DNA of 64,000 nucleotides from contig DAITNC010000001.1 in assembly GCA_036834865.1 (NCBI GenBank), forward strand, positions 1,939-65,938, in the 5' to 3' direction. The translations under genes were made by a program, and so were the position numbers. The notes beneath the pieces were generated by a model. The model saw nothing but the letters and a program-made list of their open reading frames with translations, had not been told where the DNA came from and ran no database searches. The stretch comes from Candidatus Limnocylindrales bacterium (GTDB taxonomy: Bacteria > Chloroflexota > Limnocylindria > Limnocylindrales > CSP1-4). Each line of letters starts with the position of its first letter. The stretch's first letter is position 1. This document shows positions 22,661 to 47,370 of the stretch, piece after piece.

Positions 22661-22767
22661 GTCGGGCAGCGACGCCGGCTGGCGGCGGGGCCGGCTGGCA
22701 GTTGCGCCGCCTGGGGCGCTGCGTCGATCCGTCATGCGTCGCAATACGTTGTGCTACACTGTTCGAG

Positions 22768-23208
22768 ATGAGTGATAGGCCTGCTCCAGCCCATCGCGTC
22801 CGGGAGACCACCAGCTTTCGCCTTCCCGCGGAGACCCTCGAGCGGCTCGACGCGCGCGCCCAGGCGGCCGGGACCACCCGAACGGCGCTGGCGGAGCAGT
22901 TCCTCGAGGAGGGCCTGCGCCTCGTCGAGCACCCCGGCATCCGGTTCGTCGACGGGCCATCTGGCCGGCGCGCCGGGGTGACCGGCACGGGCCTCGATGT
23001 CTGGGAGGTCGTCGAGACCATCCGGGCCCATAACGGGAGCGTCGAAGAAACCGCGGAGTACCTCAGCGTCCCTGTCGCCCGCGTCCGCGTGGCGGCACGG
23101 TACTACGCCGCGTTCCCAGCCGAGATCGACGAGTGGATCGCCGGAAATCAGGCGGTCTACGACCGTGAGTTCGAGCTGGCTCGGCGGGAGCGCGAGCTCC
23201 TGGGGTGA
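22768..23208 (+). CDS. DUF433-type putative antitoxin with N-terminal ribbon-helix-helix
   Basis: N-terminal 'TTSFRLPAETLERLDARA' (RHH/CopG-like) and C-terminal 'GLDVWEVVETIRAHNGSVEETAEYLSVP' (DUF433-like). ATGA overlap with the next gene. Confidence 0.55.
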   Translation: MSDRPAPAHRVRETTSFRLPAETLERLDARAQAAGTTRTALAEQFLEEGLRLVEHPGIRFVDGPSGRRAGVTGTGLDVWEVVETIRAHNGSVEETAEYLSVPVARVRVAARYYAAFPAEIDEWIAGNQAVYDREFELARRERELLG

Positions 23209-23603
23209 AGATCCTGCTCGACGAGCATCTCCGGCCGCATATCGCACGCCTGCTCCGCGAACGCGGACGTGACGTCGTGGCCGTCCTCGAGCGACCGGAC
23301 CTGATCGGGATGCTGGACGGCCACGTGTGGAAGGTTGCCATCGCTGAGGGACGAGCCCTCGTCACCGAGAACGCCCGCGACTTTGTCCCTGCCGCGCGCG
23401 CGACCAATGCGGCCGGGCGATCCCACGCGGGTCTCGTGCTGGTCTCCCCACAGACCGTGCTGAGGTCACGCGACGCGACCGGGTTCATCGTCGAGGCGCT
23501 CCACCGCATCGTGATGGCGAACCCGGGCAACTCGTTCGTGGACCGCGTGGCGTGGGTCGAGCCCCCCGTCGACGCGGCCGAGGGAGGCCCGCCCGGGAGC
23601 TGA
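23205..23603 (+). CDS. DUF5615 (PIN-like) putative toxin
   Basis: 'MKILLDEHLRPHIARLLRERGRDVVAV' is typical of DUF5615, the usual partner of DUF433. Confidence 0.55.
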   Translation: MKILLDEHLRPHIARLLRERGRDVVAVLERPDLIGMLDGHVWKVAIAEGRALVTENARDFVPAARATNAAGRSHAGLVLVSPQTVLRSRDATGFIVEALHRIVMANPGNSFVDRVAWVEPPVDAAEGGPPGS

Positions 23604-26744: not shown

Positions 26745-26936
26745 CTACTGCCGCCTGCTGTCGGTCAGGAAGGCCATCACGTCCGCGAGCCGGAAGCGGC
26801 GATCGCCGCGCCGGCAGACGCGGAAGAACGGGAGCTCACCGCGGTCGCCGAGGCGCTTCACGGTGTTGACATGCAGGTGGAGCATTTCCGCGACCTCGCT
26901 CGCGGTGAGGAGCGGTCCAAGCTCGCTGACGGCCAT
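26745..26936 (-). CDS. helix-turn-helix (excisionase/MerR-like HTH_17) DNA-binding protein
   Basis: 64 aa, 'LLTASEVAEMLHLHVNTVKRLGDRGELP'; GAGGA RBS 5 nt upstream of ATG. The long upstream ORF extension was rejected. Confidence 0.55.
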   Translation of the reverse strand: MAVSELGPLLTASEVAEMLHLHVNTVKRLGDRGELPFFRVCRRGDRRFRLADVMAFLTDSRRQ

Positions 26937-27291
26937 TCGAGTCCTCGCCTGTTCGGTGGCGGTCATACCGGGCACGTGACGTGGTGACGTGTAGGGTGCG
27001 ACCCGCTTCGTGGGGGAGCGTAGGGGTCCGGGTGGCCATGCGCCAAGCCGTACCTTCGGTCTAGGAGGGTCGTACGGTGCGGTCGGGATGGGATCAGCGC
27101 CCGGGGGGCCCCCGGGCGGTCGCGAGACCCGCGGTCCCGGGCGATCGACCGAGGAGCTGTCGACGGTCCATCTGGCAGTTGACGCAGCCACGTACGCGAC
27201 GGAGCATGCATCGCCGGGCCGACACCACGGGCGTCGGCGGGACGCGTCCTCACGCGCCCGGGGCATCGCGACGAGGAGCCGACTCCAGGCC

Positions 27292-27852
27292 ATGACGAAC
27301 CGTCCCTCGAGCGAGCAGGCGCAGGTGACGATCGCCTCCGAGGCGGCGCGCTGGGACGATCTCAGCCAGCTGCTCCAGCGCGGCGTGTTCTGCCCGCTCG
27401 CGGCCCGATGCTCCGTCGCTGACTTCCTCACGGGGCAGCTCGGGCTCGACCCCGACTACGTCCGTGACCGGATCGCGACCGTGTTCGTGGACGGCGCGGT
27501 GGTGGACGACCTCGCGGTCGCCACGCTGCGACCCGGCTCGACGCTCACCCTGTCGGCGGCGATGCCCGGGCTCGTGGGGGCGACCCTGCGCAAGGGCGGC
27601 TTCTACTCCGCGATGCGCTCGGAGATCAGCTGGAAGGGCGATGACGACGCGCGCCAGCCGCTCGACGGTCCACCGGGCACGATCCGGCTCAAGCTGTTCA
27701 ACAGCGTCATGCGCGAGATCGGCCCGACCCTGCTGCAGCGCGGCGTCCTGGTCGACCGCCGGGAAGCGGCGAGCGTCGCGGGAGCCCAGGGCACGGACGT
27801 GACCGACGCTCCCGGAGGCACGTGGGTGTCACTCAGGGTGGCCCCGCGATGA
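27292..27852 (+). CDS. hypothetical protein with beta-grasp (MoaD/ThiS-like) features
   Basis: 186 aa; 'IATVFVDGAVVDDLAVATLRPGSTLTL' resembles the C-terminal strand pattern of MoaD/ThiS. Immediately precedes the GG-terminated carrier. Confidence 0.45.
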   Translation: MTNRPSSEQAQVTIASEAARWDDLSQLLQRGVFCPLAARCSVADFLTGQLGLDPDYVRDRIATVFVDGAVVDDLAVATLRPGSTLTLSAAMPGLVGATLRKGGFYSAMRSEISWKGDDDARQPLDGPPGTIRLKLFNSVMREIGPTLLQRGVLVDRREAASVAGAQGTDVTDAPGGTWVSLRVAPR

Positions 27853-27871
27853 GGCGGGTCGGGCCCCGGTC

Positions 27872-28090
27872 GTGACGATCAAGCTGTTCGCCTCATTCCA
27901 GAAGGGGCGCTTCGCGGTCGAGACGAGGGAGTACCCGCCGGCGACGACCGTCGAGGAGATCGTCACGGACCTCCACATCCCGAAGCGCGAGATCGGCGTG
28001 CTGCTGGTGAACGGGCGGCACGTCTCCTTCGATCACCGCCCCGGCGGCGGCGACGTGCTGGCGATCTTCCCGGTCATCGGGGGCGGCTGA
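27872..28090 (+). CDS. MoaD/ThiS-family sulfur-carrier (ubiquitin-like) protein ending in Gly-Gly
   Basis: 72 aa, '...GGGDVLAIFPVIGGG*' with the C-terminal GG directly before the stop. Confidence 0.7.
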   Translation: MTIKLFASFQKGRFAVETREYPPATTVEEIVTDLHIPKREIGVLLVNGRHVSFDHRPGGGDVLAIFPVIGGG

Positions 28091-28097
28091 CCGACGG

Positions 28098-29294
28098 TCA
28101 GCCCGCCAGCGGGATCAGGTGGACGGCTGTCGCCTTGAACGTGACGAGGACCCTCCCGCCCGGGCCCAGCCCCATCTCCTCGGCCGAGGCCCGCGTGATG
28201 GAGGCGACGAGCGAGATCCCGCAGTCGATGGTCACCCGGACCAGCGAGCCCTGGGCAACCATCCTGGAGACGTCGCCCGGGAGCTGGTTCCGGGCGCTCG
28301 AGACGACTCTCGGCAACGAGCCCGTCGCTGACGTTCCCGGTGACCCGGAGACCGGCCCGGACACCTCGCCCGCCGGCGACCCGCCCACAACGCCGGACCA
28401 CAGCGTCACGTCCTCCGGCCGCAGACAGCACAGGACCGCGCGTCCCGGCCCGATGGCGGAGACGGCCTCGATCTGGCAGCCGCCGACGTCGACCATCGCA
28501 ACTCCCGCGCGGGTCGAGACGACGCGGCCAGGCAGGCGGGTCTCGGCGCCCACGAAGGCGGCCACGTCCTCGTCGAACGGCGCCGAGAGCACCCGCTCGG
28601 GCACGTCGCACTGGCGGAGTCGCCCCTCGACGACCACCGCCATCCGGTCGCCGAGACGGACGGCCTCGTCGAGATCGTGGGTCACGACAACGCAGGCGAC
28701 ATGCGTCTCGTGAAGGAGCAGCTCGAGATCGTCCACGAGCTTCGAGCGGGTGGCCGCGTCGACTGACGCGAACGGCTCGTCGAGCAGCAGGAGGTCCGGC
28801 TCGAGGACCAGCGCCCGTGCCAGGCTGACCCGCTGAGCTTCGCCGCTCGAGATCTGGCGGGCCGGACGGCGGCGCAGGTGGCCCACGCCCAGGCGCTCGA
28901 GCCATTCGGCAACCCTCGCCTCGACCTCGCCCGAGGAGACGCCGCGAAAGCGCAACCCGGCGGCGACGTTCGCGAACACCGACGTGTTGAGCAACAGCGG
29001 GTCGGGCAGGACGAGGCCGATGTGCCGACGGAACGCGAGCTCGTCGCGGGGCGCGACCGGCGATCCCCGAAACGAAAGCCGCCCGCGTGAAAGCGGGACG
29101 AGGCACGCCAGGGCCAGCAGGAGCGTGCTCTTCCCGGCCCCGTTCGGGCCGACCACGGCCAGCGTCTCGCGGTCCGCGAGTGCCAGGTGATCGATTGCCA
29201 GGACCGGGCGGGCGCCACGAACCACCACGAGGTCGCTGATCTCGACGAGGGGCGGCGTCGCGTCCGCGTTCGGTTCGTTCATGGTCGTGGGCAC
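28098..29294 (-). CDS. tupC: tungstate/molybdate ABC transporter ATP-binding protein with C-terminal TOBE domain
   Basis: Walker A 'GPNGAGKST', signature 'ISSGEAQR', Walker B 'LLLLDEPF'; C-terminal TOBE-like region. Confidence 0.85.
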   Translation of the reverse strand: MPTTMNEPNADATPPLVEISDLVVVRGARPVLAIDHLALADRETLAVVGPNGAGKSTLLLALACLVPLSRGRLSFRGSPVAPRDELAFRRHIGLVLPDPLLLNTSVFANVAAGLRFRGVSSGEVEARVAEWLERLGVGHLRRRPARQISSGEAQRVSLARALVLEPDLLLLDEPFASVDAATRSKLVDDLELLLHETHVACVVVTHDLDEAVRLGDRMAVVVEGRLRQCDVPERVLSAPFDEDVAAFVGAETRLPGRVVSTRAGVAMVDVGGCQIEAVSAIGPGRAVLCCLRPEDVTLWSGVVGGSPAGEVSGPVSGSPGTSATGSLPRVVSSARNQLPGDVSRMVAQGSLVRVTIDCGISLVASITRASAEEMGLGPGGRVLVTFKATAVHLIPLAG

Positions 29295-29301
29295 GGGCTC
29301 C

Positions 29302-30000
29302 CTAGCGCTGCGGACCGCGCTGCTGGGCCCACGTCAGCACGCCGTTGACCAGGAACGCCAGGGCCAGCAGGACGATGCCGAGCGCGACGGCCTTGATGAA
29401 CTCCCCGCGGCTCACGTCCAGGACGATCGCCGTGGTGAGCACGCGCGTCTGGTGGAGGATGTTGCCGCCGACCATCATCGCGGCGCCCACCTCCGAGATC
29501 ACACTGCCGAAGCCGGCCATGAGCGCCGCCAGCAGCGGCAACCGCGCTTCGCGCCACAGCCACCACACGGTCTGCCATCGCGACGCCCCCAGGCCCATCA
29601 GCTGCAGCCGCAGGCGCGGGTCAAGCTGCCCGAGCGCGGCGACTGTGAGGCCCAGGATGACGGGCGTCGCGATGATCACCTCGGCGATCACCATCGCGGA
29701 CGGCGTGTAGATGAGGCCCAGGTCACCCAGCGGACCACTGCGCCAGAGCGTGAACGCGACGAACAGCCCAACGACGACGGGCGGCAGCGCCATGCCAGTG
29801 TTGACCACGCTGATGACGAGCCCGCGGCTGCGAAACCGCGACAGGGCGAGCCACGTCCCGATCGGCAACCCGATCAGCAGGCTCAGGGCGGTCGCCAGCC
29901 CTGAGACGGCAAGCGACAGGAGGGTGATCTCGACGAGGTCGCCGCCGACCAGGCTCTGGAGCAGCTGCTGGGCCTGGTCGACGAGCGAGCCCGTGGTCAC
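29302..30000 (-). CDS. tupB: tungstate ABC transporter permease
   Basis: 232 aa, six TM helices, EAA-like loop; positioned between the binding protein and the ATPase. Confidence 0.85.
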   Translation of the reverse strand: MTTGSLVDQAQQLLQSLVGGDLVEITLLSLAVSGLATALSLLIGLPIGTWLALSRFRSRGLVISVVNTGMALPPVVVGLFVAFTLWRSGPLGDLGLIYTPSAMVIAEVIIATPVILGLTVAALGQLDPRLRLQLMGLGASRWQTVWWLWREARLPLLAALMAGFGSVISEVGAAMMVGGNILHQTRVLTTAIVLDVSRGEFIKAVALGIVLLALAFLVNGVLTWAQQRGPQR

Positions 30001-30010
30001 GCGCGGCAGT

Positions 30011-30925
30011 CTACTTGAGCGAGCTGTAGTCCTTGCCGGCGTCCGGGTTGAAGAGCGCCAGGCCGTATGTGTCGGTGCCGAACGTGCCGATGATCTGCTG
30101 CCCGGCGGTCCCGGTGACGTAGTCCTCGAACGCCTTTGCGCCCGCGGCGTTGACCTTCGGCCACTTCGCCGGGTTCACGGCGATGACGCTGTAGATGTTG
30201 ATGAGCGACGAGTCGCTCTTCACGAGGGCCTGGAGAGAGAGCTTCGATCTGTTGGCAAGGAACGTCGCGGTGTCGGTCAGCGTGTAGCCGCCCTTTTCCG
30301 AGGCGATCTGCAGCGTCGGCCCCATGCCCTGGCCGGACTGGACGTACCAGCTGCCCGCGGGCGTGATTCCCGCGGACTTCCAGAGGCTCAGCTCCTTGGT
30401 GTTCGTACCGGAGCTGTCATCGCGCGAGACGAACGTCGCAGCCGCGGCGGCGATCTTCTTGAAGGCGTCCACCGCCGAGGTCATGCCGCTGATCCCGGCC
30501 GGATCCGCCGCCGGGCCGACGATCCAGAAGTAGTTGTGCGCCACGAGGCGCCGGTCGACGCCCCATCCGGCGTCCATGAACGCCTGCTCCTGCGTCGGCG
30601 CATGGACGAACAGGACGTCGGCGTTGCCCTGCTGGCCCATCGTGAGCGCCTGGCCCGTGCCGACGGCGACGGTCTTCACGGTGTAGCCGGATGCCTTCTC
30701 GAAGGCGGGCACGAGGACGTCGAGCAGCCCCGAGTCCTGGAGCGAGGTCGTCGTGGCGAGGATCAGGGCGGTGGAGCCGGCCGGGGCGGCACTGGCGACC
30801 GGTGCGCTCGCCTGCGGGCTCGGCGACGCGGCCGAGCTGCAGGCCGCGGCGACCAGGACGAGCGCGATGAGGGGGGCGGTTCGCTCCAGCAGCCTGCGCT
30901 TCAACATCACCGTGCCACGTGCCAC
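30011..30925 (-). CDS. tupA: tungstate ABC transporter substrate-binding lipoprotein
   Basis: Lipobox 'LVAAACSS'; TupA-type 'ILATTTSLQDSGLLD' and 'ADVLFVHAP' motifs. GGAGGA lies 6 nt upstream of a GTG start. Confidence 0.8.
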   Translation of the reverse strand: MARGTVMLKRRLLERTAPLIALVLVAAACSSAASPSPQASAPVASAAPAGSTALILATTTSLQDSGLLDVLVPAFEKASGYTVKTVAVGTGQALTMGQQGNADVLFVHAPTQEQAFMDAGWGVDRRLVAHNYFWIVGPAADPAGISGMTSAVDAFKKIAAAAATFVSRDDSSGTNTKELSLWKSAGITPAGSWYVQSGQGMGPTLQIASEKGGYTLTDTATFLANRSKLSLQALVKSDSSLINIYSVIAVNPAKWPKVNAAGAKAFEDYVTGTAGQQIIGTFGTDTYGLALFNPDAGKDYSSLK

Positions 30926-31209
30926 AACCATTCCTCCAGAGATCCTGCCCACGGCCCACTCGCCCCGGGGAGCCGATGCCGCGTCGACCGAACGAGTGTC
31001 GGTTCGGAGCCCGGCCGGGAAGAGGGCCAGATGTCACCTTGAGCGAGATCATATGTGGCCATTCGGTCCGGCATCAACAGGTGTGCTGCCCATTCCTGTC
31101 CGCTTTACCTCGATATCCAGGCGCGCCTGCCTGACCCGCCGCGGACCCCGGGTAGAATGCAGTCGCGACGGGAGGCGCAACGAGTCCCGGCGAGGCAGCG
31201 GGAGGCGGG
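30926..31209. promoter_or_regulatory. divergent tupA / thiF-like intergenic region (candidate cofactor-responsive control region)
   Basis: 284-nt non-coding gap between divergently transcribed tungstate-transporter and E1-like genes; contains the hairpin ccgaac-gagtgtcg-gttcgg and a relatively AT-richer stretch. Confidence 0.3.
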
Positions 31210-32250
31210 TTGGCGACGAACGAGGTAGAAGACCGCGACCGGTACGCTCGCCAGTCGAGGTTCTGGGCAATCGGAACGGCTGGCCAGGAGCGGCTCAGTG
31301 CGGGCCGCGTCCTTGTCGTCGGGTGCGGTGCGCTCGGTTCCGCCGCGGTGAATCTCCTGGCCCGGGCGGGCGTGGGCCAGATCACGATCGTCGACCGCGA
31401 TTTCGTCGAGCTGGGCAATCTCCAGCGGCAGCTGCTTTTCGACGAGGCGGACGCCGCTGCCGGGACGCCGAAGGCCGTCGCCGCAGCCCTTGCCGTCGGG
31501 CGCATCAACTCCGAGATCGAAGTCCGCCCCTTCGTCGCCGACGTGACCCCGACCAACGTCGAGGAGTTCGTGGCGCATGCTGACGTGGTGCTCGATGGGA
31601 CGGACAACTTCGAGACCCGGTATCTCCTGAACGACGCCTGCGTGAAGCGTGGTGTCCCCTGGGTCTACGGCGGGGTGATCGGGTCGACGGGCATGTCGAT
31701 GACGATCGTGCCGGGCGAGACCCCATGCTTCCGGTGCCTGTTCCCGACGCCGCCCCCGGTCGGCACGATGGAAACCTGCGAGACGGCCGGCGTGCTTGCC
31801 GCGGGCGTCGTCACGGTGGCCGCCATCCAGTGCGCCGAGGTGATGAAGCTCCTCGTCGGCGACAGCCAGAACCGGAGCCGCGGGCTCACCGCCATCGACA
31901 TCTGGACCAACGACCACCTGCAGGCAGAGGGCACGCTCCGTGATCCCGGTTGCCCATGTTGCGGGCAGCGTCGCTTCGAGTACCTCGACGCGGTCGTGAC
32001 GAGCCGAACGGCGTCGCTCTGCGGTCGTGACGCGGTCCAGGTGAGCCCGGGCCGGCCCCTGGCGGTCGACCTCGCCGACCTCGGCCGGAGGCTCGGGGCG
32101 ACCGGGCCGGTGACCTCCAACGACTACCTCGTGCGGTGTGTCGTGGACGGGCACGAGATGACGATCTTCGTCGACGGTCGCGCGATCATCAAGGGCACGT
32201 CCGACCTCGCCGTGGCCCGCTCGCTGTACGCCCGGTATGTCGGCGCGTGA
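31210..32250 (+). CDS. ThiF/MoeB-family E1-like adenylyltransferase
   Basis: 'VLVVGCGALGSAAVNLLARAGVG' nucleotide-binding motif, CxxC...CxCC zinc cysteines. TTG start with GGAGG upstream. Confidence 0.85.
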   Translation: MATNEVEDRDRYARQSRFWAIGTAGQERLSAGRVLVVGCGALGSAAVNLLARAGVGQITIVDRDFVELGNLQRQLLFDEADAAAGTPKAVAAALAVGRINSEIEVRPFVADVTPTNVEEFVAHADVVLDGTDNFETRYLLNDACVKRGVPWVYGGVIGSTGMSMTIVPGETPCFRCLFPTPPPVGTMETCETAGVLAAGVVTVAAIQCAEVMKLLVGDSQNRSRGLTAIDIWTNDHLQAEGTLRDPGCPCCGQRRFEYLDAVVTSRTASLCGRDAVQVSPGRPLAVDLADLGRRLGATGPVTSNDYLVRCVVDGHEMTIFVDGRAIIKGTSDLAVARSLYARYVGA

Positions 32251-33400
32251 CGTGATCTACCTGGACAACGCCGCGACCTCGTTTCCGAAGCCGCCGGGCG
32301 TGGCGGAGAGCATCGTCGACTTCCTCGAGCACGGCGCCGGAAACCCGGGCCGGTCCGGCCATTCCCTGGCGATGGCCGCGCAGACCGTCGTCGCCGCCAC
32401 GAGGCGCCAGCTCGCCTCGCTGTTCGGGGTGCCCGACCCTTCGCGCGTCGTCTTTGCGCTCAACGCGACCGACGCCCTGAACACCGCGCTCTGGGGACTG
32501 CTGCGGCCGGGCGACCGCGTCGTCACCACCAGCATCGAGCACAACGCCGTCGCCCGGCCGCTCCACGCCCTGGCCGAACGCGGCATCGAGGTCACCCGGG
32601 TCGCCTGCGCCCCGGACGGCATGCTCGACCTGGACGACCTGGTCCGCGCGCTCCGGTCCGGCCCGGTCCGGCTGGTCGCGATGTGCCACGCCAGCAATGT
32701 CGTCGGCACGATCCTCCCGGTCCGGGACGCGGCGCAGCGGGCCCACGAGCACGGGGCGCTCTTCCTCCTGGACGCGGCGCAGACCGCGGGCGTCCTGCCC
32801 ATCGACGTGCGTGAGATGGGGATCGACCTGCTCGCAGTTCCGGGGCACAAGGGCCTGCTCGGGCCGACGGGCACCGGCGGGCTCTACGTGGCGCCTGACG
32901 TACGGCTCTCGCCGCTGCGCCAGGGCGGCACGGGCACGAGGTCCGAAGACGAGCGCCAGCCCGAGGAGCTGCCCGAGGCGCTCGAGGCGGGCACGCTCAA
33001 CACCGTGGGCATCGCCGGGCTGGGCGCAGCCCTCCGCTACCTCGGGGAGCGGGGGCAGCAGGGCATCCGGGCCCACGAGGTCGCCCTGACGACCAGGCTC
33101 ATCGACGGGCTGCGGGACGTCCCGGGCGTCCGGGTCCATGGGTCCGGGGATGCGGGCCGCCAGGTTGGAGTCGTCTCGCTGTCCGTGGAGGGCTGGGAGC
33201 CGGTGGACCTTGCAGCGGTGCTGGACAGCTCGTTCGGGATCGCGGTCAGGGCGGGGCTGCACTGCGCGCCGCTCGCGCACCGAACGCTGGGTACCTTCCC
33301 GCGCGGCACTGTCCGGCTTTCACCGGGCTGCTTCACCACCGACGAAGACGTGGACCAGGCGCTGGCCGCACTGCGGAAGCTGGCCGGCAGCGCCGCCTGA
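32237..33400 (+). CDS. cysteine desulfurase (class V aminotransferase)
   Basis: 'YLDNAATSFPKP', 'SGHKGLLGPTGTGGLYV' (PLP Lys), 'AGLHCAPLAHRTLG' (active-site Cys loop). Confidence 0.85.
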   Translation: MSARDVIYLDNAATSFPKPPGVAESIVDFLEHGAGNPGRSGHSLAMAAQTVVAATRRQLASLFGVPDPSRVVFALNATDALNTALWGLLRPGDRVVTTSIEHNAVARPLHALAERGIEVTRVACAPDGMLDLDDLVRALRSGPVRLVAMCHASNVVGTILPVRDAAQRAHEHGALFLLDAAQTAGVLPIDVREMGIDLLAVPGHKGLLGPTGTGGLYVAPDVRLSPLRQGGTGTRSEDERQPEELPEALEAGTLNTVGIAGLGAALRYLGERGQQGIRAHEVALTTRLIDGLRDVPGVRVHGSGDAGRQVGVVSLSVEGWEPVDLAAVLDSSFGIAVRAGLHCAPLAHRTLGTFPRGTVRLSPGCFTTDEDVDQALAALRKLAGSAA

Positions 33401-33429: not shown

Positions 33430-34740
33430 TCATCGAAGACATTGGAACGGGCCGGTGCACCAGAGGCAGGCCGCGCAGGGCACCCTGCTGATGTGGCAGT
33501 CCTGCTCGAAGTCGGCGCCTCTCACGTAGTCGCACATCGCCAGGTTGCAGTCGTAGCAGAACGGAAAGTCGTACGCCGTCACGTCTCCGCGGAAGGTGCG
33601 CCATTCCTCGGCATTCCAGGTCTCGAGGATCCCCTGCGTCGCGACGTTGCCGAAGGTCCTTGGCTCCACCACCTTGACGAGCCCGGCCAGGTGGCACTGG
33701 AAACGGTGCCAGAGGAAGTAGCAGGGGTGAAGGTCGCCATCCCACGAGACAAAGGCCGATCCTTCCTCGACGAACTCGCACCGCCGCACCTGGGTCGGAA
33801 CCGTGTTCGGGAGCTGCAGGTCGACACCGAGCTCGCGCGCGATGCCCGTTGCGTCGCCGAACGCCTCCTCGACCTCGCGGAGGCGCGCCTCGTCGAAGCG
33901 GAGCAGCTCGGCCACCTTGAGCGACACGTGCTGGGCGGTGGCGTCGGCGATCATGCCGCGGACGGATTCGATCGCCCGGGCGTCCTCGGCCGACGGCGAG
34001 ATCTGCATGAACGTGTCGAGGTAGCGCCCGAAGTCCACTCCTTCCGCGGCCGCCCGGTCTCGCCACGCTCGGTAGATCCCGAGCGCGCGATCGGACGTTG
34101 GGCTGAACGCCGCTTCGCCTGCCATCGCGGCGTCGTACGGGAGCATGTGGCTGACGATGAGGAACCCGAAGCCGTGGCCGGCAGCCCACCTGACCAGGTC
34201 CGGAAGCTGGTGGAGGTTGCTCCGCATCGCGACGAACTCGAGGCCCAGGCTGACCGATCGGCCGGAGCGGGCTGCCGAGTCGTGGAGCCACCCGGCGGCG
34301 GACTCGATCGCCCCGATGCGCGCCCCGCCGTGGAGCGCCTTGAGCTGGCCCGGCTCGACCGAATCGGCCGAGATGCAGATGCGATCGACGCCCGCCGCGA
34401 CCAGCGACTCGGCTCGCCGGTGCCCGAGCAGCTGGCCGTTTGTCTGGAACCCGATCCAGCCACTGGTGGGCATCGCGGCCCGCGCCGTCTCGATGAACCC
34501 CTCGAGTCCCCGGTGGAGCGTCGGCTCGCCGATCCCGTTGAGGACGAGCGCGTCGAGGTTCGGAAAGGCGGGGGCCAGGCGTTCGAAGGTCTCCGCGCTC
34601 ATGTCGCCCTCGACGAGACCCTGCCCCGGGGCCTGCTTGACGCACATGGCGCAGCGAAGGTTGCAGCGCGTCGTCACCTCCACGAAGAGCTTGGAGGGAT
34701 ACGGGCGGCGATACGCAGGCATCGTCACGGAGGGCGGCAT
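33430..34740 (-). CDS. radical SAM protein with SPASM domain (MoaA/NifB/PqqE family; Cmo-like)
   Basis: 'TTRCNLRCAMC' CX3CX2C cluster, plus a C-terminal seven-Cys SPASM-type pattern (CX9C, CX2CX5C, CX6CX2CX2C). Confidence 0.8.
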   Translation of the reverse strand: MPPSVTMPAYRRPYPSKLFVEVTTRCNLRCAMCVKQAPGQGLVEGDMSAETFERLAPAFPNLDALVLNGIGEPTLHRGLEGFIETARAAMPTSGWIGFQTNGQLLGHRRAESLVAAGVDRICISADSVEPGQLKALHGGARIGAIESAAGWLHDSAARSGRSVSLGLEFVAMRSNLHQLPDLVRWAAGHGFGFLIVSHMLPYDAAMAGEAAFSPTSDRALGIYRAWRDRAAAEGVDFGRYLDTFMQISPSAEDARAIESVRGMIADATAQHVSLKVAELLRFDEARLREVEEAFGDATGIARELGVDLQLPNTVPTQVRRCEFVEEGSAFVSWDGDLHPCYFLWHRFQCHLAGLVKVVEPRTFGNVATQGILETWNAEEWRTFRGDVTAYDFPFCYDCNLAMCDYVRGADFEQDCHISRVPCAACLWCTGPFQCLR

Positions 34741-34930: not shown

Positions 34931-36145
34931 ATGCCCGGGTTCGAGGAAGCGCGCCGGATCGTGCTCGAGCGGGTCAGCCCCATGGGCTGCGAGGTGGTGC
35001 CGCTGCTCGGCGCGGTCGGGCGGGTCCTTGCCGCCGACCAGGCAGCCCCCTGGGACATGCCCCAGTGGGACAACTCCGCGATGGACGGCTTCGCGGTCCG
35101 GGCATCCGACTGCGCCGATCCGAACGGCCTGGCCGTTGCCGGCTTTCTCCCCGCCGGCCAACCCGCGGTCGAGGCGCTCGCGAACGGAACGGCGATCCGG
35201 ATCATGACGGGTGCGCCGCTGCCGCCGGGCGCCGACGCGGTCGTCCCCTTCGAGGAGGCGGAGGAGCGCGCCGGGCTGGTCTTCGCGAGGCGTCGCCCGG
35301 TCGCGGGCGATCACGTCCGCCGGAGGGGCGGCGACATCCGCGAGGGCGCGACCGCGCTCGAGGCGGGGGCCGTCATCGGGGCCGCCGAGGTCTCCCTGCT
35401 CGCGTCACTGTCCAGGACGTCGGTGCCCGTCGTCCGCCGGCCCCGGGTCGCGATCCTCTCCACCGGGGACGAGCTCCTGGAGCCCGGAGAGCCGCTCGCC
35501 GCCGGGAAGATCTACAACAGCAATGCGCAGGCGTTGGCGGCGGCCGCCCTGCGGGCCGGCGCGATACCGGTCGTGCTGCCCATCGCGCGCGACGACCGCG
35601 CGGCGTTGCGGACCCAGCTCGTCGAGGGCCTGCGCGCCGACGCGCTGGTCACGACCGCCGGCGTCTCGGTCGGGGACCGCGACCTCGTGCGCGAGGTGTT
35701 GCGCGACCTTGCGGTCGAGGAGGTGTTCTGGAAGGTCGACATCCAGCCCGGCCGCCCGACGGCATTCGCGCTCTCGGGGATCACGCCGGTCTTCTCGCTG
35801 CCCGGGAACCCGGTCGCCGCACTGCTCACGTTCGAGATGTTCGTCCGGCCGGCCCTGCGCCGGATGATGGGTCATTCGCGGCCGCTGGACGTGCCGGTCC
35901 GCGCCCGTCTCGGAGACGCGGTCATGCCAAGGCAGGATCGAGTCACCCTGAGGCGGGTCCGCCTCGAGCGGATCGGCGACCAGATCGTGGCGTCGAGCGC
36001 GGGCAGCCAGGCCACGGGCTTCCTGCGGACGATGGTCGGCGCCGATGGGGTCGCCATCATTCCCGCCGGCCTGGACAGCGTTGCCGCCGGCAGTGTCGTG
36101 GACGTCTACACGCTCCGCGAGGACTGCCTGATCGGGGGCGCCTGA
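34931..36145 (+). CDS. moeA: molybdopterin molybdenum/tungsten-transferase MoeA
   Basis: MoeA family ('TGAPLPPGADAVV', 'ILSTGDEL', 'LPGNPVAA'). GGAGGG RBS 7 nt upstream of the ATG; the long in-frame upstream extension was rejected. Confidence 0.85.
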   Translation: MPGFEEARRIVLERVSPMGCEVVPLLGAVGRVLAADQAAPWDMPQWDNSAMDGFAVRASDCADPNGLAVAGFLPAGQPAVEALANGTAIRIMTGAPLPPGADAVVPFEEAEERAGLVFARRRPVAGDHVRRRGGDIREGATALEAGAVIGAAEVSLLASLSRTSVPVVRRPRVAILSTGDELLEPGEPLAAGKIYNSNAQALAAAALRAGAIPVVLPIARDDRAALRTQLVEGLRADALVTTAGVSVGDRDLVREVLRDLAVEEVFWKVDIQPGRPTAFALSGITPVFSLPGNPVAALLTFEMFVRPALRRMMGHSRPLDVPVRARLGDAVMPRQDRVTLRRVRLERIGDQIVASSAGSQATGFLRTMVGADGVAIIPAGLDSVAAGSVVDVYTLREDCLIGGA

Positions 36146-36193: not shown

Positions 36194-37930
36194 TCAGAAG
36201 TTGAAGACCGCGTCCAGGTCCGCGTCCTTCACCTGGAACTTCACGTTGTGCGGCGCCAGCGCCTCCTCCTCGAAGAAGCGGGGCAGGCGATCGTCCGCCG
36301 CGCTGAAACCGGCCCGGGTGTTGAAGTCGCGCTCCGCGGTGAGCACCTTCTTGCCCAGGGCCGTCACGTCGTCGGCCGTGAGGTTGATGTCGTAGAAGCC
36401 GTTCAGGAGCTCGACCAGCGCGTTGAAGGTCTCGGGCTGGTCGAGGACCGGGAAGGCGATGAAGAGACACATGCCGGTGGAGTCGATCGCCGCGGTCGCG
36501 ATCTGCAGGTTGCGTGACAGCTCAACCTGGCCCTCCGGCTTGAGGGGATCGACGAAGCCGCCCACCTTGAGGATGTTTGCCGTGACGGCGTAGCCGGCCG
36601 TGTGGTCGGCGCCCATCGGGGTCGTGGCGTAGGTGACGCCCATGCCCTGGACGGCCCGTGGATCGTAGGCCGGGAGCGCCTGGTTCTTGACCACCGGCAC
36701 TCGCTCGACGCCGAAGGCCTTGCCGGTCGCGCCGGCGCCCGAGCCGATGATCCGGCCGAGCGGGGTGCCCTTGCCGACCTCGGACAGGACGCGGATGGCG
36801 CCCTGGCCGTCGCCGAACTTGAGGAGCCCGCCTTCCATGGCGACGCCGATGGCCACGCCGGTCTCGATCGTGTCGAGACCGAAGTCATCGTCCATCCGGT
36901 CGAGCTGCTGGATGATGTCGAGGTCGGAGATGCCGCAGTTGCCCCCATGCGACCAGACGGTCTCGTACTCGGCCTGCTTGCTCAGGTACTTGCCGGTCGT
37001 GTCGTTGTAGATGCCGGAGCACTGGATGATGCAGCCGCGGTGGCAGCCGTGCGTGGCCTCACCGCCTCGCTCGGTCATCGTCGCGGCCTGCGTCTCGCCG
37101 CTGATCTTCGTCGCGCCCTCGAACTGGCCCGCGCTGAAGTTGCGCGTCGGGTAGCCGCCAGCCTCGTTGAGGATGTTCGTCAGGACGTTGGTCCCGAACG
37201 CCGGGAGGCCGGTGCCGGTGACGCCGTGGCTCCGAAGCCCCTCGTTGAAGATCTTCGCCGCGGCCTTGAAGCGCGCCGCGTCGGCCGGCGGTCGGGTCAC
37301 GGTCCCGGTCTCGTCGAGGATGAACGCCTTGATCTTCTTGGAGCCCATCACAGCGCCCACGCCGCCGCGCCCCATGTGGCGGGTCGGGTGCAGCTCGCGG
37401 TCGCAGGCCGCGATCGAGGCGGCTGGCAGCATCATCTCGCCGGCTTGGCCGATGAGCATGAAGGTGACCTTCTCGCCATAGGCGGCCCGGAGCGCCTCGA
37501 CGCTGGCGTAGGTGCCGAGGCCCTTGAGGCCGTTGTCAACCTTGAACGAGACGCCCTTCCTGTTGATGAGGACCGTCCAGAGGTCGTCGCCCGCGGGCCT
37601 GCCTTCGACGATGATCGCCGCGTAGCCGAGCCGGGCGATCGCCTGGCCCGCCTGGCCGCCGGCGTTCGCCTCCTTGATCCCGCCCGTGAGCGGGCTCTTG
37701 CAGCCGACGGAGATGCGGCCGCTCGTGGATGCCGCGGATCCGGTGAGCATGCCCGGCGCGAAGACGAGCTTGTTGGCCGCGCTCAGCGGGTGGCACTGCG
37801 GATCGACCTCGGCGCTCACGACGAGCGAGGTCATGGCGCGGCCGCCCAGCCCGGCGTAGTCGCCAAGCGGCTGGATCGTCGCCTTCGGGCCGCCCTCGGC
37901 ACTCATGTCGATGCGAAGGATCTTGTCCAT
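36194..37930 (-). CDS. aor: tungsten-containing aldehyde:ferredoxin oxidoreductase
   Basis: AOR N- and C-terminal domains ('MDKILRIDMS', 'GRISVGCKSPLTGG', 'DSTGMCLF'). Confidence 0.9.
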   Translation of the reverse strand: MDKILRIDMSAEGGPKATIQPLGDYAGLGGRAMTSLVVSAEVDPQCHPLSAANKLVFAPGMLTGSAASTSGRISVGCKSPLTGGIKEANAGGQAGQAIARLGYAAIIVEGRPAGDDLWTVLINRKGVSFKVDNGLKGLGTYASVEALRAAYGEKVTFMLIGQAGEMMLPAASIAACDRELHPTRHMGRGGVGAVMGSKKIKAFILDETGTVTRPPADAARFKAAAKIFNEGLRSHGVTGTGLPAFGTNVLTNILNEAGGYPTRNFSAGQFEGATKISGETQAATMTERGGEATHGCHRGCIIQCSGIYNDTTGKYLSKQAEYETVWSHGGNCGISDLDIIQQLDRMDDDFGLDTIETGVAIGVAMEGGLLKFGDGQGAIRVLSEVGKGTPLGRIIGSGAGATGKAFGVERVPVVKNQALPAYDPRAVQGMGVTYATTPMGADHTAGYAVTANILKVGGFVDPLKPEGQVELSRNLQIATAAIDSTGMCLFIAFPVLDQPETFNALVELLNGFYDINLTADDVTALGKKVLTAERDFNTRAGFSAADDRLPRFFEEEALAPHNVKFQVKDADLDAVFNF

Positions 37931-38300
37931 GCCGTGCGTGTCCTTTCTCGTCCGCGACCCCCACGGGATCTTCGTCGCCCGGCGAGCTCCTCGGCGGACC
38001 CCCGGGCCCACCCGGCGCGTGGCCATGTGTGTCCACTCTCCAGTCGGGCTCGCCTCCGCTCCGGCGAAGGGTCAGGTCCCGAGCCTGGCAGCGTACGGAT
38101 CCTGGTGACCTGCACGATCGCGGGCGCCGGCCCGTCGACATAGTGCCGAAGGACACGATACTCCGAGGGACTCCTGATCTGCCCGACCCCCGGGGAAACC
38201 AAGCGACCACCGGCGCAGTGGCTCGCTGGCCGTTCCGCGACCCTGCGTCCCGGCCGTCGTCGCGCCCACCTACCATTGGCGGGCAGATGCGGACCCCAGC

Positions 38301-42315: not shown

Positions 42316-42391
42316 TGGCGCCCCCGGCAGGAGTCGAACCCGCAACCAACCGGGTAGAAACCGGTCGCTCTGTCCATTGAGCTACGGGGGC
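42316..42391 (-). tRNA. tRNA-Arg (anticodon TCT)
   Basis: Reverse complement folds as a cloverleaf: GCCCCCG acceptor, T-loop GGTTCGACTCC, anticodon stem ACCGG/CCGGT with loop TTTCTAC, CCA encoded. Confidence 0.8.
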
Positions 42392-47293: not shown

Positions 47294-47370
47294 TGGTACC
47301 GCATACCGGATTCGAACCGGTGATCTCCGCCTTGAGAGGGCGGCGTCCTGGGCCTCTAGACGAATGCGGC
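47294..47370 (-). tRNA. tRNA-Glu (anticodon CTC)
   Basis: Reverse complement GCCGCATTCGTCTAGAGGCCCAGGACGCCGCCCTCTCAAGGCGGAG...GGTTCGAATCC...CCA; the D-arm 'GTCTAGAGGCC' is typical of tRNA-Glu. Confidence 0.8.

Follow-up and report, generated by a model that had tools for sequence, protein, structure and literature searches.

A widespread, unnamed protein family linked to tungsten aldehyde:ferredoxin oxidoreductase genes and its possible role in cofactor maturation

Gene clusters that combine a tungsten aldehyde:ferredoxin oxidoreductase (AOR) with MoaD- and MoeB-like proteins have been assigned to the synthesis of the tungsten cofactor (Iyer, Burroughs & Aravind, 2006; PMC1779556), and a classification from 2026 uses the name WorX for a ThiS-like PF02597 protein encoded beside AOR/WorL and ThiF, with an assumed role in pterin processing (PMC13328260). 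A cluster of this type is located in the 64,000 nucleotides of contig DAITNC010000001.1 from a Candidatus Limnocylindrales bacterium (Chloroflexota) that were analyzed here and are referred to as the window. It shares with the clusters described by Iyer et al. the AOR, a MoaD/ThiS protein terminating in Gly-Gly (GG), an E1 of the MoeB/ThiF type, and MoeA, and the taxa match, too (Geobacter, Desulfuromonas, Syntrophobacter, and others). The subject of this study is a further protein of the window, X186 (186 amino acids; 27292–27852, + strand), a member of an AOR-linked family that has no name and is termed X in the following. The neighboring carrier and the type of cluster are already known; X186 joins a decayed fold of the ThiS/MoaD type to a novel extension and represents a family that is widespread and unannotated.

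In the clusters of 2006, MoaD was reported to be "strictly adjacent" to AOR, whereas the adjacent gene in the loci compared here is usually X, a protein of 180–215 amino acids that lacks the terminal GG and is not recognized by the Pfam ThiS model; X was not described as a separate entity (PMC1779556). WorX is matched by the carrier of 72 amino acids encoded next to X186, whereas X186 itself matches no Pfam family. The neighborhood survey of 2026 works from Pfam and InterPro families (PMC13328260), and a family-based neighborhood tool would probably score X as "none." X was likely missed by family-based surveys because neither Pfam nor NCBIfam has a model for it, and we found no publication that treats the X family as a separate entity.

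The X186 gene extends from an ATG at 27292 to the stop codon at 27852. After a spacer of 19 nt, the open reading frame (ORF) of the 72-amino-acid MoaD/ThiS-type sulfur carrier, an AOR-linked MoaD of the WorX type (27872–28090, + strand; PF02597 and PF14451), starts with GTG at 27872 and terminates with …FPVIGGG and a stop codon at 28090. Both ORFs had been proposed in a first-pass annotation made from the sequence alone and are present as a tandem, although the spacing of 20 nt given there is one nucleotide too long. The ATG at 27292 was assigned as the start of X186 instead of the in-frame GTG at 27010, because the third-position guanine-plus-cytosine (GC) content rises from 0.68–0.79 upstream of 27292 to 0.92–0.96 within the ORF (72% GC in the whole window) and because close homologues begin with the same MT(N/T)… residues. 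Judged by this codon bias, the in-frame stretch from 27010 to 27292 is non-coding.

A homologue search with X186 yielded 317 proteins (E ≤ 1e-3) of about 175–230 amino acids, which contain no Pfam domain and are labeled "hypothetical" by every source that names them. Since these homologues share the length and the start of X186, the latter is regarded as a real gene. When the search was seeded with a distant member of the family from Pseudomonadota, 1,902 homologues were obtained, also without a Pfam domain. A profile search of 1.84 billion cluster representatives recovered 1,212 X-family clusters at 50% identity (E ≤ 1e-3) and 1,088 at E ≤ 1e-10. The family is encoded in at least 539 species-representative genomes of Chloroflexota, Desulfobacterota (including Geobacter, Desulfuromonas, Desulfosarcina, and Syntrophales), Anaeromyxobacter, Nitrospirota, spirochaetes, and some Pseudomonadota. 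The best 150 representatives are all stand-alone proteins of 136–297 amino acids, and no gene fusion pointing to a partner was found among them. Plasmid records with an annotated X homologue were not found. Pfam and NCBIfam gave no match at E ≤ 0.01 for 40 diverse members including X186, and the family profile had no real match among all PDB sequences; a TetR_C_31 match in the former scan (E = 0.04) was dismissed as noise, and a match to thioredoxin reductase in the latter (E = 1.7) was spurious. We define the family by the pattern LSAAMPGL.GA..R....Y..(M/L/F)R together with KLFN, a length of 175–220 amino acids, and a gene beside AOR. X186 carries every signature motif; its AOR gene is not adjacent but is found on the opposite strand at a distance of 8.3 kb. 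By these sequence features, X186 is a member of a large, unannotated, and unnamed bacterial protein family.

The AlphaFold model of X186, based on an alignment of 40 sequences, reached a mean predicted local distance difference test score (pLDDT) of 80 and a predicted template modeling score (pTM) of 0.76. The N-terminal part is modeled as β11–15, α21–30, β32–35, α42–49, α54–60, β61–66, and β84–89, followed by a low-confidence loop, α105–115, a variable linker, and a C-terminal module. Using hhalign and Foldseek, a ThiS/MoaD-like β-grasp core without the terminal GG was assigned to about residues 30–89 (27379–27558, + strand). The profiles of X and of the co-encoded carriers align over residues 24/33–87 (hhalign P = 1.2e-5 to 3.2e-5, probability 73–81%); the MoaD-like strand pattern recognized in the first-pass annotation of this ORF, which contains IATVFVDGAVVDDLAVATLRPGSTLTL at residues 61–87, is therefore more than chance. 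For a separate model of residues 6–95 (pLDDT 85), the top Foldseek match in the PDB was ThiS (3cwi; prob 0.99, E 0.075, target-normalized template modeling score (TMt) 0.61), followed by MoaD (6jbz_B, prob 0.96; 2q5w_D; 5mpo) and a TGS domain. Further matches were human MOCS2A, SAMP2, SAMP1, ThiS (1zud), and RnfH, and the TMt of the top ThiS/MoaD matches ranged from 0.49 to 0.61. This coherent list of β-grasp proteins was obtained with the isolated N-terminal model only; the full-length model retrieved nothing at E ≤ 0.001 from the PDB or BFVD, and MoaD (2q5w_D) appeared at rank 40. With moderate confidence, the N-terminal part of X186 is a β-grasp core of the ThiS/MoaD type, in agreement with the proposal that two β-grasp proteins are encoded in tandem. 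Strands 11–15 and 32–35 are formed in the full-length model only and are absent from the model of residues 6–95, which suggests that the two halves of the predicted structure share one sheet. A relationship of X to the pterin-binding N-domain of AOR itself (tandem β-grasp, PF02730) as a paralogue was rejected, since the hhalign probability was 0.4% (57 AOR sequences) and PF02730 was not matched. The hexapeptide LLQRGV occurs twice in X186 (residues 27–32 and 147–152), and a comparison of the N-terminal with the C-terminal half by hhalign (P = 0.0018, probability 15%) gives a weak hint of an internal duplication.

In the alignment of X with the carrier, the invariant AAMPG of X is located at the position of the xxxGG tail of the carrier, and the X chain runs on beyond it. 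The C-terminus of X186 (…RVAPR) has no GG, the C-termini vary across the family, and the internal G102–G103 is replaced by S or D in 16–26 of 110 X-family sequences. X186 is not a carrier because a terminal GG is lacking and the internal pair is not invariant; the first-pass suggestion of a second carrier is not supported. According to this comparison, X keeps the carrier fold and has lost the carrier chemistry. The same data bear on the idea that the two proteins form a ubiquitin-like conjugation pair, or that cleavage of X186, as a pro-carrier, exposes a glycine terminus and yields a second carrier or modifier. Two β-grasp proteins beside an E1 would suit such a system, MoaX of Mycobacterium tuberculosis is a cleaved MoaD–MoaE fusion, and two carriers of the Nitrospirota type extend past their GG. 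However, besides the poor conservation of G102–G103, the C-terminal half of X is conserved and modeled as one unit with the N-terminal half, as indicated by the pTM and by the two strands that need the full length, and neither a JAMM/JAB protease gene nor an E2-like gene was found among the Pfam-annotated genes of the window cluster (larger ORFs) and of the related loci L001 and L003. We consider conjugation or pro-carrier cleavage very improbable. The first-pass annotation had left the choice between a conjugation and a sulfur-transfer system, and it is the sulfur-transfer or cofactor cluster that is supported.

The strongest-conserved feature of X follows the β-grasp core. This signature loop (27550–27618, + strand; residues 87–109, LSAAMPGLVGATLRKGGFYSAMR in X186), delimited by conservation among the 110 sequences and by pLDDT, reads L87-S-A-A-M-P-G-L-v-G-A-t-l-R100-r-g-g-f-Y105-x-x-m-R109. 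L87, S88, P92, G93, G96, R100, and R109 are invariant in the family, as are G31, D72, and N137 outside the loop. Further conserved motifs are K134-L-F-N137 and G144-P-x-x-L-x-R-G151; more than 95% of the sequences share K134, L135, F136, and G151 of these motifs. Residues 96–103 have a pLDDT below 50 in the model. Because of this low prediction confidence despite near-invariance, the loop is probably flexible or ordered only upon partner binding. The invariant polar residues (D72, S88, R100, R109, and N137, with K134 nearly so) would suit the binding of phosphate or carboxylate groups. Neither an invariant cysteine nor an invariant histidine was detected in the 110 sequences, with C40 present in 66 of them. 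A persulfide acceptor or a metal site in X was ruled out on this basis, which also leaves the proposal that X186 receives the thiocarboxylate sulfur unsupported, if this is taken to mean a persulfide acceptor. The C-terminal α/β module (27679–27843, + strand), which contains the KLFN and GPxxLxRG motifs, was delimited by the model and by conservation and is predicted to consist of β130–136, α137–150, β152–155, α156–163, a variable stretch, and β178–184. It has no fold or sequence match in the PDB.

Another role to be weighed at this point is that of a MoaE analogue that has no homology to MoaE. X186 and the thiocarboxylated carrier would then jointly form an AOR-dedicated molybdopterin synthase, which converts cyclic pyranopterin monophosphate to the dithiolene-bearing pterin. 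The known carrier/E1 pairs each work with a third, sulfur-accepting enzyme, namely MoaE, ThiG, or CysM (PMC1779556), and X has a β-grasp core with an extension, which recalls MoaD–MoaE fusions, as well as invariant or near-invariant Arg, Lys, and Asn residues. MoaE is not encoded in the three Pfam-annotated clusters (window, L001, and L003), although this absence covers the annotated clusters only and a housekeeping moaE elsewhere in the genomes is possible; among the ORFs of the window that were scanned, moaA, moaC, and moaE were all missing. On the other hand, no similarity of X to MoaE was found by comparison of the profile with PDB sequences or among the Foldseek matches of either model, despite the many MoaE chains in the PDB, and the C-terminal module of about 60–80 amino acids is far smaller than MoaE. 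The gene linkage described below also speaks against a MoaE analogue, since AOR–X pairs without a carrier exist. We therefore regard a MoaE-like function as unlikely.

To determine the genomic context of X, the proteins of the window were compared with 83 loci of X-family members. An AOR gene is located directly upstream of X on the same strand in 63 of the 83 loci, with a median of 158 nt between the aligned segments, and an AOR within 10 kb was found in 73. Three of the ten remaining loci have too little upstream sequence to tell. A GG-terminated carrier is encoded within 3–4 kb of X in 62 loci; 19 loci with room for a carrier show none in this range. ThiF was found within 5 kb of X in 43 of the 83 loci, in many cases directly after the carrier, whereas the radical SAM (rSAM) maturase and TupC were each found near X in 15. 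The order AOR–X–carrier–ThiF is kept in distant Chloroflexota, in which X is 43–46% identical to X186, and also occurs in Desulfobacterota, Anaeromyxobacter, Nitrospirota, and spirochaetes. The block is rearranged in the window and in the nearest relatives among the Chloroflexota (L005, L006, and L008), where tupCBA separates X and the carrier from ThiF and AOR. The homologues are tightly tied to AOR, MoaD-like, and ThiF genes, as expected in the first-pass annotation, instead of being randomly distributed. AOR and not the carrier is the constant partner of X, because some genomes, Desulfosarcina variabilis and several metagenome-assembled genomes, keep the AOR–X pair alone among unrelated genes. 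X is inherited with AOR. An adaptor, the third of the roles offered in the first-pass annotation, is the best of the three, with the qualification that its tightest partner is AOR and not the carrier.

Deviations from this arrangement concern individual loci. In a Geobacteraceae locus (L082:8797–9789), the gene of an IS1595-family transposase lies between AOR and the X homologue, and the single large AOR–X gap is due to this insertion. In a Chloroflexota locus (L001:8184–9921), the AOR upstream of X was called as three successive pieces of 194, 277, and 92 amino acids, which are either a frameshifted pseudogene or the result of assembly errors; in tblastn, AOR is likewise fragmented in L012 and L060. 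The neighbors of AOR-less X genes, among them LarC, an ADP-forming acyl-CoA synthetase, a class-III aminotransferase, and glutamine synthetase, show no shared context. In Desulfoferrobacter suflitae DRH4 (L055:9821–10612), the X homologue follows the gene of the nickel-insertion protein LarC (PF01969) instead of AOR, and a LarC homologue is encoded within 3–4 kb of X in L037, too. The LarC pathway, a different cofactor route, involves thiocarboxylate chemistry. Given these LarC neighbors, X may not be strictly AOR-specific.

The strict adjacency of X and AOR on the same strand, which includes the lone AOR–X pairs, could also mean that X186 is loosely attached to AOR as a structural or regulatory subunit, which stabilizes the enzyme or docks an electron partner and has no role in cofactor synthesis. 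Yet X has no residues that would bind a redox cofactor and often co-occurs with the carrier and the E1, and the purified bacterial class I WORs as well as AorABC of Aromatoleum were reported without such a subunit (PMC13328260; PMC6365974). We regard a subunit of this kind as improbable.

The 72-amino-acid protein downstream of X186 passes the gathering scores of two Pfam families, ThiS (PF02597; 37.6 bits, gathering 22.5) and Ub-Mut7C (PF14451; 42.5 bits, gathering 23), and ends in GGG, which agrees with its first description as a canonical GG-terminated carrier. For MoaD, SAMP1, and ThiS, it does not reach the equivalog cut-offs of NCBIfam. By these scores, it belongs to the ThiS/MoaD superfamily without being an orthologue of MoaD, SAMP1, or ThiS. 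The C-terminal Gly-Gly is the predicted site of adenylation. Carrier orthologues beside X have about 74 amino acids and end in …FP(P/V/L)xGGG or AGG, and 54 of 56 terminate in GG. The closest natural relatives of solved structure are of the MoaD type (1vjk and 1fm0_D); better-scoring matches to designed "SAKe" proteins were disregarded, as no significant stretch was aligned. From its sequence and position, the gene is of a known kind, corresponding to the AOR-linked MoaD (PMC1779556) and to the ThiS-like WorX (PMC13328260). The carrier homologues of two loci of Thermodesulfovibrionales/Nitrospiraceae (L024:7250–7546 and L027:4892–5152) run about 13–15 residues beyond …FPPIAGG (QRESIE…). Unless this extension is an artefact of assembly or annotation, the Gly-Gly of these proteins would have to be exposed by C-terminal processing.

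We interpret the region as the sulfur relay within a self-contained gene cluster for the maturation of a tungsten AOR. In the proposed pathway, the ThiF/MoeB-like E1 would adenylate the C-terminal Gly-Gly of the carrier, which would then be thiocarboxylated with sulfur from the neighboring cysteine desulfurase. Tungstate would be imported by TupABC and the metal inserted by MoeA, with the radical SAM protein serving as a maturase. X186, composed of the degenerate ThiS/MoaD β-grasp, the loop, and the small α/β module, would dock on apo-AOR and/or the thiocarboxylated carrier via its β-grasp face and the invariant loop. It may thereby couple the sulfur chemistry of the pterin dithiolene or of the tungsten cofactor, as well as cofactor loading, to this one AOR, with the binding site formed by the invariant loop and the conserved Arg, Lys, and Asn residues. 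We infer the partners of X186 and its function as an adaptor or chaperone from fold, conservation, and gene linkage, and consider the chances about even that it is an AOR-dedicated accessory protein, that is, a cofactor-maturation adaptor. A more specific version, which we put forward tentatively and with clearly less confidence, regards the X family as the cofactor chaperone or insertase dedicated to AOR-family enzymes, a pseudo-carrier that hands over sulfur or the finished cofactor to apo-AOR. The dead β-grasp and the invariant loop would then serve to bind the thiocarboxylated carrier, the tungsten-bis-pterin cofactor, or both.

A narrower task within the same sulfur relay would be that of a specificity factor for cofactor sulfuration. 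In this case, X would pass sulfur from the thiocarboxylated carrier to the tungsten of AOR as an additional ligand (sulfido or SH), similar to the function of FdhD or XdhC/MOCOS. Several archaeal AOR-family enzymes have been reported to be activated by sulfide. The AOR cluster has its own cysteine desulfurase, E1, and carrier, a rhodanese is encoded in L003, and the conserved gene order places X after AOR and before the carrier. This is countered by the lack of a conserved cysteine for a sulfur relay in X and by the AOR–X pairs without a carrier; moreover, it is not established that AOR has a sulfido ligand. Such a sulfuration factor is, in our estimation, a distinctly improbable explanation.

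Several observations weigh against X186 as an AOR-dedicated maturation adaptor. Adjacency to AOR fits X as an enzyme or enzyme subunit equally well. Archaeal AORs mature without X, and the archaeal WOR clusters that were analyzed lack even WorX (PMC13328260). With 0.075 or weaker, the E-values of the β-grasp matches in Foldseek are below formal significance, and the C-terminal module and the signature loop resemble nothing known, which leaves the chemistry unconstrained. Finally, no AOR lies within 10 kb of X in five to seven loci, and in one of these X follows the LarC gene.

The remaining genes of the cluster are in line with the maturation of a tungsten enzyme. Downstream of the carrier gene follow the genes of the tungstate ABC transporter on the − strand (28098–30952), TupC (ATPase with TOBE domain), TupB, and TupA, which contain the domains ABC_tran and TOBE, BPD_transp_1, and PBP_like_2. 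NCBIfam WtpC and TupA were the best matches for the tup genes, both under the equivalog cut-offs. An E1-like adenylyltransferase of the ThiF/MoeB family (346 amino acids; 31210–32250, + strand; PF00899 E = 3e-76, NF009123 371 bits) is the presumed activator of the carrier. Its residues 251–346 (31960–32250), an extension of about 95 amino acids past the Pfam ThiF domain, are covered by NCBIfam PRK12475 and by no Pfam domain, and a rhodanese domain was not found in this extension. The next gene overlaps the ThiF gene by 14 nt and encodes a protein of the cysteine desulfurase family (class-V aminotransferase; 32237–33400, + strand; TIGR01977 455 bits, cut-off 377), presumably the sulfur source. 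It is followed by a putative metalloenzyme maturase of the radical SAM/SPASM type (33430–34740, − strand; TIGR04311 556 bits, cut-off 400), the start of which is an estimate and which also matches TIGR04317, the radical SAM maturase of oxidoreductases with a tungsten cofactor. MoeA (34931–36145, + strand; MoeA_N, MoCF_biosynth, and MoeA_C) likely starts with the ATG at 34931. The last gene encodes the tungsten AOR/WorL family enzyme (36194–38026, − strand; AFOR_N and AFOR_C), which is likely the client of the cluster. The E1-like and radical SAM neighbors named in the first-pass annotation are thus present, and AOR and TupABC are present as well. A riboswitch for the molybdenum cofactor was not detected upstream at either the Rfam gathering or permissive thresholds.

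A DNA-binding protein of the HTH_17 family (excisionase/BldC type, 74 amino acids; 26745–26969, − strand; PF12728 and TIGR01764) is encoded divergently from X186. Such a gene was found upstream of X in the closest Chloroflexota loci only, at a distance of 0.4 to 7.6 kb. The protein is a possible regulator of the system, with uncertain membership. Next to it, a non-coding block of about 100 nt (26996–27095) is nearly identical in L004 and 80–85% identical in L005–L008, which exceeds the identity of the flanking coding DNA. The block always adjoins the HTH_17 gene, even if that gene is located 3–7.6 kb from X. Because it stands beside HTH_17 wherever that gene is found, it travels with the HTH gene. 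On its minus strand, a potential hairpin, CCGUAC-(18-nt loop with CCUCC)-GUACGG, was recognized, which has no covariation support, and no Rfam family was matched by the block. At 22702–23603, 3.1 kb upstream of the tungsten cluster, the window contains an apparent toxin–antitoxin pair, a ribbon–helix–helix (CopG-like) gene followed by a DUF5615/PIN-like gene with an overlap of 4 nt. Two tRNA genes are located on the − strand (42319–42391 and 47297–47370). The first lies between the gene of an FNR-like reductase and an ORF with a partial match to a DNA methylase (residues 87–139 of 524), possibly the border of an integrated element.

Beside the AOR's own MoaD-like carrier and E1, X is a third and very widespread component, and it is tied to AOR even more faithfully than the carrier. 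It provides a concrete gene handle on the question of how the tungsten-bis-pterin cofactor is completed and inserted into the enzymes of the AOR family. This is of practical relevance, as cofactor maturation limits the recombinant production of active AORs, which serve for the reduction of acids to aldehydes or for hydrogen-driven NADH recycling. The family also represents a clean case of a sulfur-carrier fold that is re-used as a non-carrier module.

The arrangement of X186 and its carrier resembles that of a system for which experimental data are available. In the aorABCDE cluster of Aromatoleum aromaticum, aorABC is followed by aorD and aorE, both of which were described to "resemble MoaD," and their products are not part of the enzyme as purified (PMC6365974; PMC9295118). 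Upon co-expression of aorDE, the specific activity of recombinant AOR of Aromatoleum rose from 4.5 to 16 U/mg, and 85 U/mg were reached with added tungstate (PMC9295118). The layout of aorDE is the same as that of X followed by the carrier, and AorD (WP_041646405) may, by this analogy, be a member of the X family. The likeness is one of gene order and description; Aromatoleum proteins were not among the X-family matches listed, including those of the search seeded from Pseudomonadota. In addition, the Aromatoleum AOR belongs to the three-subunit class, whereas the AOR of the window is a lone large subunit, encoded 8.3 kb from X and on the opposite strand. Fused carriers offer a second comparison. 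MoaD–MoaE, ThiS–ThiG, and Ubl–ThiF fusions consist, like X, of a β-grasp and a further polypeptide and have a separate solo carrier in the same operon, as was noted for ThiS–ThiF fusions (PMC1779556). In X, however, the extension resembles neither MoaE nor ThiG nor ThiF, and the invariant AAMPG replaces the GG position. In its proposed logic, X corresponds to the chaperones TorD/NarJ/DmsD, XdhC, and FdhD, which are encoded by small genes beside one client, are absent from the mature enzyme, and are needed for cofactor loading or sulfuration. None of them is among the PDB matches of X, so that the likeness is functional only and the fold is different. To our knowledge, no dedicated cofactor chaperone has been established for the AOR family. 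If the chaperone function applies, X would be the AOR-family counterpart of TorD/NarJ, XdhC, and FdhD on a different fold.

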